Counted from the stretch's first letter, positions 50,178 through 54,459 are shown. The stretch is DNA of 64,000 nucleotides from Escherichia coli (GCF_048403405.1 NZ_CP183129.1); one strand, 5' to 3'. The notes: generated from the sequence alone by a model not told the origin. Program-made: numbers and translations.

Positions 50178-52775
50178 TTAAAAGAAGTCATCCTGAAATG
50201 CCAGGTCGATCGTGATCGGGTAGCGACCATACTCTGTTGCGCTGTCCGCATTCTCCAGGATAAGAACATACTTGTTTTTACGATTGAATGCCGTCCCCAT
50301 GAGTTTCATGGTTACATCGCGGGTGCGTTTACCCATATCTTCGTTATCACTGTCGAAGCATACTGTTTCCGTGCCGGAGACGACCTGGTTGTTTTCATCG
50401 ACGATAAAGATATTCAGCGTGCGCGGCTCATTTAAATCATTCACTGCCGAAGTCTGAATAAAACCAATTTTATCAATGCTGTTAACCAGTTTGATCACCT
50501 GATCCCGCGCAACGACGGGCACGGGCTGCCGCTGGGGTTGCTTCTCAGCCGCTTTCTTTTCAAGCGCGCGAATCTTCAACACAGGAACACACACTTCCTG
50601 CAGCATGGCTCCGCCATGAACGAAACGAGCACCCCCTACGAAGTGGAAACGCTGTACTCCTTTGGGTAACAGGAATTCACTTTCATCGCTTGCGCCTGCA
50701 GTATCAGCCAGTTTGCCGTGCCAGCAAAATTCACTTTCAGGCAGTTGATGGCCTACAATAAAACGCTTATTCGCTTCAATCGTGTCTTTGGCTTTACTTT
50801 CCAGCTTCGTTTTATCCTGCTCCACCAGCGCTTGTTGTTGGAACAGGAAGCCGTGATCGGCGGTAACAAAAATTCGGCTGGCATTAAATCGGCTACGCAG
50901 GCGTGAAACCAGATCTTTTAGCTCAGTGATTGCACTTCGGCAGGCCTCAAACGTTTTATCTTCCGTTGCAGCCTTATCACCCATGGCATCTATAGTGTCG
51001 TGCCAGATATAAACTACGGAAGCGTTGCGGATTTGCTCGTTCACTTCCTGGTTATTGGCGTTCTGCAAGTCCTTTGCTTTCAGCGCTACACCATTCACCT
51101 TCGCAAGAATAGCGGCTCTTTTTTCAAACCCGGAAGTGGACATCCCATCGGCGTATACTACACCAGAATTATCAGGAAGATAGCTCAACGACTCATGAGG
51201 CAACAGTGCGGCCATGCCCAGTTGGGTATAGCTTGGGAGCACTCCGGTCTGGGAGCGCAGCTCTGCACTGAAGTGCTTCTCATAGTTGATATGCCTGCCC
51301 AGCTCTTCCGCCACTTCGTAGCGCAATGCATCCGAGATCACGACAAAAACACGTTTGACCTGCGAGGTGTCAAACTGACGTTTAACATTCTCTTTATAGA
51401 AATTGCGCTGCAGGGGTATGCCGCTAAACTGCCAGGCCTGCATACGGTTTTCCGCTTCCAGCAGTTTGTTCCAGCCGCGACTTAGTTCAGTCAGATACCA
51501 ATTGCTGTATAACTCTTCGATGAATTTATCCAGTTCATGCAGGATCATCGCCCCTTTGCTGTGCACTGGTGCAGCATATTCATTGAACAAACGATAGGTC
51601 TGATCGAAGCGATAAATTTCGTCACAATAGGCCTTCCAGAACGCACCTGTATCGGGGAAATTAAACCCGTCGGTGTAACGGTTACGCAAATTCAGCAAGC
51701 GTTCTGCCTGACGAATAGCATTCCAGATAGAAAGATACTCTGGGCGGGTTTGGCTCCAGTATTTCGCACTGCGCTCTGAAACCAACGCTTTAAACGCATC
51801 TCTGTCCAGAGTGGTGCTCTCTTCCTGCAACTGTGTCACCAGACCACGGATAATAAGTTGCTCAATAGCCTCGAAGGTTTCACATTTTGCCAGTGTATAT
51901 GGTGAGCTGTAGTTGTAGTGTTCTTTTGGCTGGAGCGTCTGCTGCAAATCCTCTGCACAGTAATCGTATTCTACTTTATAGCGACGATCGTTGCGCCACG
52001 CCCCCATAAAGGCCAGTGACGAGGCCCGACCAGCCGCGGTAGCCAGCACATTTTTACTCAACCAGTCACGATGTGCTTCATCACCCTGCGCCCAGAGATC
52101 GGTACAGAACAGTTTCAGAAGCAGATTTTCCATTGAAGGAGATTCAGACTGGTATCCCAACTCAAGGCGAAGAATTTCCCAAAGTACCTCATCCAGGCCA
52201 AGCTTCGTCAGTACGGCGAAAGTGTTCTCGAGTGCGCTATCATCTTGCTGCCGTGCTGCGACAAACTGCTGAACCAAAGCAAATAGTATTTCTTTGGTTT
52301 CGAAGGTACTGGCCCCGACCACCACCGCCAGCATTTTCTTATCGAGAGAGTTTTCCGTTTCGCGCTCGGTGACCCATCCCTTCAGGATCTGAGTTCGCTT
52401 AACGGTAAAGAAGGCTTTGCGAAGCTGAATATGTTCGCGTAAACCGAGTTGCGGGATACCCAGAGAATTCAGGGTGATCGCCGCATAATCAGCGTGGAAT
52501 TCGGTACTATAGAGGCGGATATCCAGCAACCAGTCCTGCTCGCGAGCAGGAACCTCACAGGTGAAATAGAGTAAAAATTTCTGCTCAGGCTCGTCGATTT
52601 CGAGTCGTTTTTTTGTTGCGAGCACAGAAACGCCACGCATATCCAGCAGCGTGACATTGTCGAGATCCAGCTCATTAATTGAATCAGTGAAGCGTTGTTC
52701 CGGGTCGTGCCAGAAGACGATACGGTTGTCGGTAAACTTCTGACGAAGCCCTGATTCCAGTTCTTTAAATTGCAT
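50178..52775 (-). CDS. pglZ: BREX alkaline-phosphatase-superfamily protein PglZ
   Basis: 865-aa protein with a PglZ-type signature (…IFVTADHGF…). Confidence 0.85.
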   Translation of the reverse strand: MQFKELESGLRQKFTDNRIVFWHDPEQRFTDSINELDLDNVTLLDMRGVSVLATKKRLEIDEPEQKFLLYFTCEVPAREQDWLLDIRLYSTEFHADYAAITLNSLGIPQLGLREHIQLRKAFFTVKRTQILKGWVTERETENSLDKKMLAVVVGASTFETKEILFALVQQFVAARQQDDSALENTFAVLTKLGLDEVLWEILRLELGYQSESPSMENLLLKLFCTDLWAQGDEAHRDWLSKNVLATAAGRASSLAFMGAWRNDRRYKVEYDYCAEDLQQTLQPKEHYNYSSPYTLAKCETFEAIEQLIIRGLVTQLQEESTTLDRDAFKALVSERSAKYWSQTRPEYLSIWNAIRQAERLLNLRNRYTDGFNFPDTGAFWKAYCDEIYRFDQTYRLFNEYAAPVHSKGAMILHELDKFIEELYSNWYLTELSRGWNKLLEAENRMQAWQFSGIPLQRNFYKENVKRQFDTSQVKRVFVVISDALRYEVAEELGRHINYEKHFSAELRSQTGVLPSYTQLGMAALLPHESLSYLPDNSGVVYADGMSTSGFEKRAAILAKVNGVALKAKDLQNANNQEVNEQIRNASVVYIWHDTIDAMGDKAATEDKTFEACRSAITELKDLVSRLRSRFNASRIFVTADHGFLFQQQALVEQDKTKLESKAKDTIEANKRFIVGHQLPESEFCWHGKLADTAGASDESEFLLPKGVQRFHFVGGARFVHGGAMLQEVCVPVLKIRALEKKAAEKQPQRQPVPVVARDQVIKLVNSIDKIGFIQTSAVNDLNEPRTLNIFIVDENNQVVSGTETVCFDSDNEDMGKRTRDVTMKLMGTAFNRKNKYVLILENADSATEYGRYPITIDLAFQDDFF

Positions 52776-53344
52776 TATTGATTCTCAAACCATTCGACCA
52801 GTTCATGAGCGCTAGGGCAAGCAGGGTGTCTGGCAGAACTCTGAATATCAAAACCGTGATGCGTTACCATTCTCCTGGCAAATGCGGTTTTAGAACTTCC
52901 CGGTCCCTGTTTTCCTAGCTCGCGTGAAATTACTTTTAAACGATCCCATGGCATTTCAGTTGTAGCTTCAGGTAACTCTTCATTAAATGTGTCTACTTTA
53001 AGCCATTTTTTCATTGCCTCTGAATCGGCAAGAAACCAAGCCTCAACTGCTTTGACTGCGATAAACGAGATGTCGACATCTTGATGGGCAATTCGGGCCC
53101 GTACATCAGCAACAGATGCCGCATCTTCCAGGTCGGTCAGAATACAGATCCGTTCAGCACCTACATTTCTGAGCCTAGCAACGAAATTATCAACATACTT
53201 CGGTAACAGGTTACCACCACCTTTGGCATCAATAACGGGAGTTACCAATTCAAAATTATTCGTGCGCAGAAATGCAATGAACGCTGGTGAATTCACGATG
53301 ATTGACTCAGTATCACCTTCAACGATAAAACCTATTTTTACCAT
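52775..53344 (-). CDS. DUF4276-like / TOPRIM-like small protein nested in the BREX operon
   Basis: 189-aa protein starting KIGFIVEGDTE and containing ILTDLEDA (E...DxD, TOPRIM-like); start overlaps the upstream ATPase stop by 7 nt and its stop shares a nucleotide with the pglZ start (TAATG). Confidence 0.6.
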   Translation of the reverse strand: MVKIGFIVEGDTESIIVNSPAFIAFLRTNNFELVTPVIDAKGGGNLLPKYVDNFVARLRNVGAERICILTDLEDAASVADVRARIAHQDVDISFIAVKAVEAWFLADSEAMKKWLKVDTFNEELPEATTEMPWDRLKVISRELGKQGPGSSKTAFARRMVTHHGFDIQSSARHPACPSAHELVEWFENQ

Positions 53345-54459
53345 GGCAAACCGCCATCAAACATATTCATCAGCCACGCGGTATCCAGTGGGATTTCCTT
53401 TTTATCAACCCCCGCATCTGAAGCATGCATCAGCTGAGTTTTCCCCTCTTTTTTACTAACAAACCACAGTTCGTCTGGTTCCAGATTGCGAACAATAGAT
53501 TCACTATGGGTAGTAATAACAATTGGATGATTCAAAGAGGCATTTTCACGCATCAATTGCACAAGTTCCCCAATGGCTTTTGGGTGAATACCGCGTTCAG
53601 GCTCTTCAATAATGGTCATCCCCGTTTGCTGTGCTCGACTCAAGATGGCCGTCATAATACAAAGCGTGAAGATGGTGCCGTCAGAGATAAGATGGGCAGG
53701 AAAGCGGGCACGAGTTCCCTGTTCTTTAAAGGTCAATACCGTTGAGCCATCCAATTTTTGTTTCTCGGTCGATACATTTTCCATCCCCGGAACGATGAGT
53801 TCCATCCACTCCAGTATTTGCTCTTTAAATTCGCTATTCGATTCGAGAGCAGCAAGCACAGAAGCAATGTTTCGACCATGACTGTCCAGAAATGTCGAGT
53901 CAGTTTTGGCGCTATCGGGCTCTTTAGCACGTAACGGATCGATGCGAAAAACAACAATATTGGTCAAAAAAGCGTACAGTTCACTTTTCCCCAGTAGCAT
54001 TAGTGCCGTCATATCTGACGAGTAGTTAGGGATTAAAGTCGCAGGGATTTCATCACTATCGCTCAGGCGAATCATAAGAGTATCAGGGTGCTTACGATCA
54101 ATATAAATATCTCCATCAATGACCAACTTTTCAGTGATTGTTGGTTTTTTATCCATGTTTTTGATCGTCAAGTCATAGGTAAACTGTTTTCCTCCCAGCT
54201 CAATTTGAAGGTGCAGTGAAGCCGTAGTCCGATTTTCCTTACGCAGCTTGTAGCAATGAATCTGCTGAAAACCGCCAAAATCACGGATTGCTTGTGTCGC
54301 CCCGGTTTTCACTACGGCACCAAAAAAAGCCAATGCATCGGTAATGTTACTTTTGCCCGCACCATTGGCTCCAGCAAAGGTGATAAATGGTGGGCTTTCC
54401 ACAAGGGAAAGCTCCGCGATGCTCTTGTAGCCTTTAATAATCAGGGGATGTTGATCCAT
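53338..54459 (-). CDS. ABC-type (AAA_21-like) ATPase nested in the BREX operon
   Basis: Walker A GANGAGKSN, Walker B/D-loop IIEEPERGIHP, H-loop TTHSE; start codon shares a nucleotide with the pglX stop (TAATG). Confidence 0.75.
   Translation of the reverse strand: MDQHPLIIKGYKSIAELSLVESPPFITFAGANGAGKSNITDALAFFGAVVKTGATQAIRDFGGFQQIHCYKLRKENRTTASLHLQIELGGKQFTYDLTIKNMDKKPTITEKLVIDGDIYIDRKHPDTLMIRLSDSDEIPATLIPNYSSDMTALMLLGKSELYAFLTNIVVFRIDPLRAKEPDSAKTDSTFLDSHGRNIASVLAALESNSEFKEQILEWMELIVPGMENVSTEKQKLDGSTVLTFKEQGTRARFPAHLISDGTIFTLCIMTAILSRAQQTGMTIIEEPERGIHPKAIGELVQLMRENASLNHPIVITTHSESIVRNLEPDELWFVSKKEGKTQLMHASDAGVDKKEIPLDTAWLMNMFDGGLPW

Follow-up and report, generated by a model that had tools for sequence, protein, structure and literature searches.

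An ABC ATPase and minimal TOPRIM protein of the HEC-01 candidate family embedded between pglX and pglZ in an Escherichia coli type 1 BREX locus

The stretch of DNA analysed here (the window) comprises 64,000 nucleotides (nt) of an Escherichia coli chromosome (GCF_048403405.1, NZ_CP183129.1) and carries a complete type 1 BREX locus on its minus strand, with two extra genes inserted between pglX and pglZ. These genes encode an ABC-type ATPase and a small TOPRIM protein, and their profile matches place the pair in HEC-01, a candidate system of the PADLOC database. All six genes of the BREX-1 core (brxA, brxB, brxC, pglX, pglZ and brxL) are present on the same strand and intact, and the RefSeq annotation of a 100%-identical locus in strain TUM14771 is free of pseudogene flags. 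Proteins identical to those of the window occur in E. coli genomes. The locus lies in an island at a tRNA-Leu gene, adjoining a degraded integrase.

Direct reading of the open reading frames (ORFs) yields the same gene coordinates and cassette anatomy as a preliminary description of the window, in which the pair was reported to be nested in BREX with start and stop codons that overlap. TAATG is the sequence at each outer junction, and 7 nt are shared by the two inserted genes (Table 1). Base 54459 is common to the pglX stop and the ATPase start (minus strand AGGAGGCATAATGGAT), and the AGGAGG Shine-Dalgarno sequence for the ATPase gene falls within the last pglX codons (QEA). The PglX C-terminus ends in APQEA in 5/5 close HEC-01-bearing loci, in APEII in the Salmonella LT2 type and in APEAI in the E. 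coli HS type, two locus types described below. Co-transcription of the cassette with BREX is plausible because no intergenic space separates the genes. The preliminary description presented co-transcription and translational coupling as a necessary consequence of the overlaps; they are a reasonable expectation from the absent spacing, but that 'therefore' was too strong, as transcription starts have been mapped inside both inserted genes of the Salmonella analogue (PMC9009780). Promoter and terminator counts between 47.5 and 64 kb are at or below shuffled expectation and are uninformative on internal promoters.

The 373-residue ATPase matches the PADLOC HEC-01A profile PDLC04176 end to end (E 1.2e-181, residues 1-373 against profile positions 1-371 of 371) and Pfam AAA_21 with an E-value of 4e-24. 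In a search of solved structures with the ATPase family profile, the OLD nuclease 6p74 is the best match (1e-13), while AriA (2e-6) ranks well below OLD, PtuA and GajA. The fold is that of an ABC ATPase, of OLD/Rad50 type and lacking its own nuclease, and an AAA+ fold was rejected. Across 36 diverse homologues, the key residues of the Walker A, signature, Walker B and H-loop motifs show little or no variation. The C-terminal tail is also conserved (GGLPW; N365, G370, P372 and W373), though of low confidence in the structure prediction, and is compatible with a role as a partner-docking tail.

The 189-residue protein encoded by the second gene (B) likewise matches its PADLOC profile, HEC-01B PDLC04185, over the full length (E 5.2e-100, residues 1-189 against positions 1-188 of 188), and it matches Pfam DUF4276 with an E-value of 1.5e-5. 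DUF4276 is matched by all 45 of its aligned homologues, and DUF4435 or RloB by none of them (0/45). Sequence searches of the protein against the PDB, NCBIfam and PHROGs return no match, and its identity comes only from Pfam, PADLOC and a fold comparison, in which it is an OLD-like TOPRIM domain. The TOPRIM hallmarks are present: strand 1 is followed by a conserved Glu, and strand 3 by an acidic pair. The acidic residues, previously given as E...DxD, in fact form E9...D71-x-E73, an E...DxE variant of that motif, and D74 is not conserved in the family. Conservation extends to E13, GGGNLL at 42-47, P125-E126, R135, K152 and H173/C176/S178, in addition to the positions listed in Table 1.

Table 1. 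Coordinates of the embedded cassette, the BREX genes and neighbouring island genes in the window
Feature	Position	Strand	Description
HEC-01A ATPase gene, 373 aa	53338-54459	-	OLD/Rad50-like ABC ATPase, presumed sensor
Walker A, G30-S37	54349-54372	-	ATPase motif
Variable beta-rich insert, ATPase residues 76-150	54010-54234	-	Presumed trigger-recognition surface
Signature-like ISDGT	ATPase residues 258-262	-	ABC motif
Walker B/D-loop TIIEEPERGIHP	ATPase residues 282-293, about 53596-53619	-	ATPase motif
H-loop TTHS	ATPase residues 316-319, 53503-53514	-	ATPase motif
HEC-01B gene, 189 aa	52775-53344	-	DUF4276 minimal TOPRIM protein, presumed nuclease effector
B residue E9	53318-53320	-	Conserved
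B T70-D71-L72-E73 (TDLE)	53126-53134	-	Conserved acidic motif
B K98/E101/D107	53024-53044	-	Conserved
pglX/ATPase junction	54457-54469	-	AGGAGG Shine-Dalgarno 54464-54469, then TAATG 54457-54461
ATPase/B overlap, ATGGTAA, 7 nt	53338-53344	-	ATPase stop over TOPRIM-gene start; direct reading
TOPRIM-gene/pglZ junction, TAATG	52773-52777	-	1-nt overlap, shared base 52775
brxA	about 62387-63007	-	ORF; DUF1819 in RefSeq annotation of identical TUM14771 locus
brxB	61788-62390	-	ORF; DUF1788 in RefSeq annotation of identical TUM14771 locus
brxC	58161-61775	-	ORF; BrxC in RefSeq annotation of identical TUM14771 locus
pglX, 1217 aa	54459-58112	-	Methyltransferase/specificity subunit; cluster names, PDB BrxX/PglX matches (E = 0), RefSeq
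pglZ, 865 aa	50178-52775	-	Directly downstream of cassette; cluster names, PDB homologues, RefSeq
brxL	48092-50167	-	ORF and RefSeq annotation of identical locus
AbiEii-family toxin and DUF6088 protein	about 33524-34859		Mapped from L028
CbtA/YeeU pair	about 35874-36581		Mapped from L028
Frameshifted GTPase and WYL-domain protein	41633-43368		Mapped from L028
Small GIY-YIG nuclease	45888-46181		Mapped from L028
Integrase pseudogene	63576 onwards		Mapped from L028

HEC-01 (Hma-embedded candidate 01, PADLOC-DB v2) was described as an ABC ATPase with a TOPRIM protein that has an OLD-like metal site, and cassettes embedded in the modification-based BREX, DISARM and type I restriction-modification systems were merged into its model (Payne et al., bioRxiv 10.1101/2024.01.29.577857). 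The resulting category is a broad umbrella of many profile hidden Markov models and has no member of demonstrated function. The preliminary description could not assign the pair to any named system and proposed profile checks against DUF4276, DUF4435, RloB and PADLOC; of these, DUF4276 and HEC-01 are matched. The pair is thus assignable, and the combination of an ABC ATPase with a DUF4276 protein is also known as Mad3-Mad4, so the implied novelty is lower. HEC-01 is already catalogued and the embedding of ABC-TOPRIM pairs in BREX already published, and the cassette is a further member. Its distance from the HEC-01 pair of Pseudomonas agarici is considerable. The two ATPases are 24% identical, and the partners are undetectable to each other by BLASTP and related only at the profile level (hhalign E 7e-4), with FIVEG..E aligned to FLLEE, TDLE to RDQD and EAWFLAD to EAFYLAD (window against P. 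agarici). The acidic motif thereby takes the DxD form (DQD) in P. agarici and the form DLE in the window subfamily.

Both cassette genes are under purifying selection. Ratios of nonsynonymous to synonymous substitution rates (dN/dS) against the E. coli, Salmonella and Yersinia copies are 0.07-0.13 for the two genes, comparable to those of pglZ, brxC and brxL, and argue against an inactive remnant, the outcome that the preliminary description had named as counting against its proposal. The overlap of the two genes (CC ATG GTA A) is identical in seven other lineages, that is, in all examined, although the ATPases of these lineages are only 45-92% identical.

The least conserved stretch of the ATPase family-wide is formed by residues 76-150, where structure prediction places strands at 80-144. 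The same stretch differs sharply between otherwise near-identical loci. The locus of E. coli N17 has about 99-100% DNA identity to the window nearly throughout (a few 150-nt windows in brxC fall to 89-94%) and two divergent patches, one in the PglX specificity domain and one in the central ATPase gene (about 53.5-54.3 kb, 61-79% nucleotide identity). The N17 ATPase allele (L026 9564-10685 against window 53338-54459) retains 82.6% amino acid identity with a dS of 1.42, while the N17 partner gene has a dS of 0.05, a dN of 0 and an unchanged protein, and pglZ has a dS of 0.02. By residue, 1-75 are identical, 76-150 are 36-68% identical and the rest 80-92%, except for 176-200 at 68%. Public data hold a second allele class (P0177), 99% identical to that of N17. 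With a dN/dS of 0.08, we read the N17 ATPase as a diverged allele probably imported by recombination, rather than as a product of positive selection in place. The ATPase alleles do not follow the PglX specificity domain: pLR06 combines another specificity domain with a 98%-identical ATPase. This argues against the insert reading that domain. The pattern of variability is as would be expected of a trigger-recognition surface, and the insert may be one; its variation between otherwise near-identical loci is possibly a new detail.

Among 5426 complete E. coli genomes, a related BREX-1 was found in 343 and the cassette in 26. The cassette copies are always full length (one of 1686 rather than 1685 nt), always lie at the pglX-pglZ junction and fall into identity tiers of about 100, 99.3, 96.1 and 85.2%. 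The window-type cassette also occurs in other Salmonella strains, in Yersinia ruckeri and on 11 E. coli plasmids. A 145-residue form of B is recorded for Salmonella serovar Derby, and one Salmonella enterica locus (L009, 2353-6001) has pglX in four ORFs, with the cassette, pglZ and brxL intact.

Other BREX-1 loci have different contents at this site. The canonical order in which pglX is directly followed by pglZ, as given in the preliminary description, holds for the genes of E. coli HS-type loci, where a non-coding spacer of 176 bp lies between them. This spacer has no remnant of either cassette, and so no sign of cassette loss in HS; a pglZ promoter region was suggested by Zaworski et al., and the spacer may correspond to it. 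The spacer (L001 3817-3992) contains an inverted repeat rich in GC and a promoter-like, AT-rich stretch, and what it shares with the LT2-type locus is confined to the last few dozen bases around the start of pglZ. At or near the junction, Aeromonas loci carry Juk with a PARIS-type pair or Juk alone, and a metagenome-assembled genome (MAG) carries PDC-S01; PDC-M25 lies upstream of pglX. Defence genes are thus embedded repeatedly at the pglX-pglZ junction, the point on which the preliminary description had proposed a comparison of strains. About 7000 of 9000 BREX loci have genes between BREX components (Went et al.), and Payne et al. (bioRxiv 10.1101/2024.01.29.577857) likewise noted, in broad terms, that such embedding recurs.

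Two further arrangements were seen among the BREX loci collected. A metagenome contig (L031, 900-10630) holds a BREX-1 locus with three inserts: a helix-turn-helix and HipA pair between brxC and pglX and, between pglX and pglZ, a HEC-01-type pair followed by a 408-residue ABC ATPase with a 258-residue protein that has no Pfam match. In Pseudidiomarina, Buttiauxella and an Enterobacteriaceae MAG (L013, L014 and L017, roughly 30-7800), pglX is apparently split into N-terminal (about 650 residues) and C-terminal (about 580 residues) ORFs, between which lie a TIR-like protein and a reverse transcriptase-nitrilase of roughly 1000 residues (PADLOC RT_UG5-nitrilase, E 9e-302); the arrangement may represent either a split methyltransferase or a defence system lodged within a BREX gene.

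Another occupant of the junction is the two-gene insert between pglX and pglZ of Salmonella Typhimurium BREX, described as an ATPase with a DUF4435 protein or as ariA/ariB (PMC9009780, PMC11341690). A first PglZ scan of genome contigs gave 8 loci and missed Salmonella LT2; the LT2-type locus was reached by rebuilding the Salmonella PglZ from the PDB 9NV3 alignment and then retrieving the encoding contigs. It comprises a 1225-residue PglX, a 363-residue ATPase, a 270-residue DUF4435 protein and pglZ, with overlapping starts and stops (L018-L020), and its insert proteins match the PADLOC models AriAB/AriA and AriB. The LT2-type ATPase is 24% identical to that of the window (E 6e-8), and its small partner has no similarity to B (hhalign probability 0.1 against the Salmonella AriB-like protein). 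On sequence comparison the two cassettes occupy the same junction and are non-orthologous. A first hint that they differ, not decisive alone, came from the primers with which Went et al. deleted ariA: even with up to 4 mismatches allowed per 20-mer, neither the window nor the HEC-01-bearing Salmonella loci contain a matching site.

Homologues of B with 52-95% identity have genomic contexts of three kinds: inside BREX, solo and in a prophage. Of 11 lineages sampled, 5 have the pair without any BREX genes, four times solo and once in a prophage. Housekeeping genes surround the solo pairs of Andreprevotia, Moraxella and two metagenome contigs. In a P2-like Vibrio prophage, the pair lies in the interval from the CI repressor to the integrase, beside a type II restriction-modification system. 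The latter region (L023, Vibrio fluvialis, 7223-15702) sets the pair next to a C5 methylase, a MvaI/BcnI-type endonuclease and Vsr and looks like a cargo hotspot. On the strength of these solo and prophage occurrences, the pair is probably a portable, self-contained module and not an obligate BREX subunit. Phages themselves seldom carry it: a set of 50,697 phage records yielded two short unannotated fragments, and IMG/VR a single partial locus. A family borne mainly by phages or satellites in the manner of PARIS was rejected on this rarity. Within BREX, cassette divergence tracks PglZ divergence: the ATPases of Salmonella, Yersinia, Xenorhabdus and an Oceanospirillales MAG are 95, 92, 72 and 62% identical to that of the window, against 97, 94, 64 and 53% for PglZ. 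In a neighbour-joining tree of PglZ (no support values), HS (empty) and LT2 (PARIS-type) nest among HEC-01-bearing lineages, a topology compatible with, though not establishing, an old insertion followed by replacement or loss.

From the analogy with PARIS, OLD and Gabija a mechanism can be proposed for the pair, in which the ATPase senses infection and B is the nuclease effector of an abortive-infection backup co-expressed with BREX; we give this reading a probability of roughly 0.55. Its observed foundation consists of the folds, the motifs, the selection, the gene coupling and the autonomous distribution, while the complex, the trigger, the substrate and the abortive outcome are drawn from the analogy. 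The two proteins would be made in fixed proportion and form a complex, with the nuclease kept silent by the ATPase. Once the variable beta-rich insert (ATPase residues 76-150) recognised a phage cue, an ATP-dependent rearrangement would release or activate the TOPRIM nuclease, which would cut nucleic acid (DNA or tRNA) and so arrest the infected cell. Placement inside the BREX operon would provide co-expression, and the pair would probably act as a second line against phages that escape or inhibit BREX, as an autonomous passenger rather than as a core BREX part. Embedded ABC-ATPase systems have been proposed as BREX backup before (Payne et al., bioRxiv 10.1101/2024.01.29.577857).

Several points weigh against an abortive-infection backup. 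Trigger, target, stoichiometry and complex formation are all inferred. The HEC-01 pair of P. agarici, the one representative of the system cloned and assayed, gave no protection against any phage tried (bioRxiv 10.1101/2024.01.29.577857), although this pair is so distant that its negative result says little about the window subfamily, and the Salmonella PARIS-type insert showed neither defence of its own nor a response to Ocr (PMC11341690). Decay is seen in one Salmonella enterica copy (L008, 7116-7685), where B has the nonsense mutation Q146*, and the family, unlike PARIS, is nearly absent from phages and viral contigs.

On a different view, the pair has no defence role and is a passenger, either selfish or in decay (for example a remnant or an addiction-type pair resembling a toxin/antitoxin), kept only since its deletion would disrupt expression of pglZ and brxL. 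The lack of a phenotype for the distant HEC-01 pair and the Salmonella PARIS-type insert and the nonsense allele of B in some Salmonella would fit, as would the Pfam name of AAA_21, 'putative AbiEii toxin'. Strong purifying selection on both genes, catalytic motifs that are invariant or nearly so across more than 45 diverse homologues, solo copies that persist in unrelated genomes free of any operon constraint and a pattern of sensor alleles typical of immune sensors nevertheless make such a passenger very unlikely. A bona fide PARIS, the same AriA/AriB system as described in Salmonella BREX, is less probable again, to the point of being hardly credible. The ATPase does match the PADLOC AriA model at 6e-26, the architecture of an ABC ATPase followed by a small TOPRIM protein agrees, and the position equals that of the published ariAB. 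The AriA match, however, coincides with the Pfam AAA_21 match both in the residues covered and in model length and is therefore read as a generic AAA_21-type match, B and its homologues match no AriB or DUF4435 model of PADLOC or Pfam, and the LT2-type pair combines a distant ATPase with an unrelated partner. Structure-profile ranking likewise sets AriA well behind OLD, PtuA and GajA. In our view the missing DUF4435 partner refutes membership.

The pair might also be an integral effector arm of a BREX variant, supplying or controlling the nuclease step of restriction in the way of Mad3-Mad4, and deletions of mad3 or mad4 do lower defence in MADS, where the ATPase is placed in the restriction arm (bioRxiv 10.1101/2023.03.30.534895). 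The fusion of the cassette into the operon, with pglZ starting inside its stop codon, and the divergence of cassette and PglZ in step, which suggests long co-inheritance, point the same way. We nonetheless consider this unlikely, given the BREX-free lineages and the fact that related BREX-1 works without the pair: E. coli HS has a spacer only, and Salmonella BREX keeps defence and methylation after deletion of its inserted pair (PMC11341690, PMC9009780). The ATPase is also far below the MAD3 cut-off (85 against 420 bits), and the pLR06 comparison speaks against a link between its alleles and PglX specificity. Similarly tentative, and improbable as a whole, is a more speculative scheme in which the pglX-pglZ junction is a dedicated slot for interchangeable ABC-ATPase/TOPRIM guards wired to BREX (HEC-01 here, a PARIS-type pair in S. 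Typhimurium, Juk with a PARIS-type pair in Aeromonas). The ATPase would there monitor PglX/PglZ integrity or BREX inhibitors through its exchanged insert and fire the DUF4276 nuclease as a suicide backup or as the missing BREX nuclease step.

The mode in which BREX arrests phages is still unclear, and DNA mimics, Ocr among them, inhibit BREX. Evasion of BREX might be punished by a second layer of defence, a role for which a conserved sensor-nuclease pair translated from within the operon is an obvious candidate. The E. coli cassette differs from the assayed Salmonella 'PARIS', and the existing negative results say little about the HEC-01 subfamily of the window. Close BREX loci with nothing, HEC-01 or a PARIS-type pair at one junction are natural controls for swaps, and the variation of the ATPase insert points to a possible seat of trigger specificity. 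If active, the pair would add a DUF4276 branch to the PARIS/OLD/Gabija ABC-TOPRIM immune systems; if inert, it would be one more catalogued embedded candidate. Added here are the distinctness from the Salmonella insert, the conserved overlap of the two genes, the purifying selection, the solo and prophage copies, the exchange of the insert and the distance of the P. agarici test.

The neighbourhood of the locus holds further features. Downstream of brxL, within a frameshifted IS3-family transposase annotated in the identical genome, lies a full-length match to the Hfq-binding small RNA isrN of Rfam (46934-47075, minus strand, 136.9 bits against a gathering score of 44). Additional genes of defence or toxin-antitoxin type lie in the tRNA-Leu island, at about 33500-46200 of the window as mapped from L028 (Table 1).

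Among known systems, MADS offers a close parallel in composition, as Mad3-Mad4 joins an AAA_15/21-type ABC ATPase to a DUF4276 TOPRIM protein in a methylation-based defence operon, Mad4 having been described as DUF4276 (PMC12065111). The window ATPase scores 85.3 bits against the cut-off of 420 for the NCBIfam MAD3 equivalog NF047739, and B does not match the mad4 model in PADLOC, its DUF4276 likeness to Mad4 being at family level only. MAD6-8, which are mandatory in the MADS detection model (bioRxiv 10.1101/2023.03.30.534895), are not among the genes of the identically annotated locus, which lists the six BREX genes and the cassette only. The assignment of the MADS ATPase to the restriction arm follows from mad5 being deletable only together with mad2 or mad3 (bioRxiv 10.1101/2023.03.30.534895).

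PARIS resembles the window pair in having an ABC ATPase and a separate TOPRIM nuclease as two genes, with the Salmonella copy at the identical pglX-pglZ junction, and differs in its partner, AriB being a DUF4435 protein of about 270-300 residues and the window partner a DUF4276 protein of 189. The role proposed for PARIS is that of a backup to BREX and restriction-modification in the face of inhibitors of the Ocr type, and its usual carriers are P4/P2-type elements. It is activated by Ocr and cleaves tRNA (PMC11464382).

The likeness to PARIS, OLD/Gabija and AbiL with a partner of another family, as noted in the preliminary description, is upheld by the lack of DUF4435 and RloB matches and of profile similarity to the Salmonella AriB-like protein. 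OLD proteins (class 1 P2 Old, class 2 Bp/Ts OLD) and GajA combine ATPase and TOPRIM domains in one polypeptide, whereas the window encodes two proteins, and Gabija further pairs GajA with the GajB helicase, whereas no helicase gene lies between pglX and pglZ; membership in OLD class 1/2 or Gabija was rejected on the two separate ORFs. AbiL (AbiLi/AbiLii) and RloB-type pairs share an ABC ATPase with a small TOPRIM-superfamily partner, and the window ATPase matches AbiLi at 2.8e-29; AbiL membership was rejected, as the partner has no RloB or AbiLii match (0/45 homologues). PrrC of the EcoprrI type I restriction-modification locus, an ABC-ATPase-type suicide nuclease unleashed on inhibition of the host system by a phage (bioRxiv 10.1101/2024.01.29.577857), is a conceptual precedent for a suicide nuclease nested in a modification-based defence operon. 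It is a single-protein anticodon nuclease of another family.

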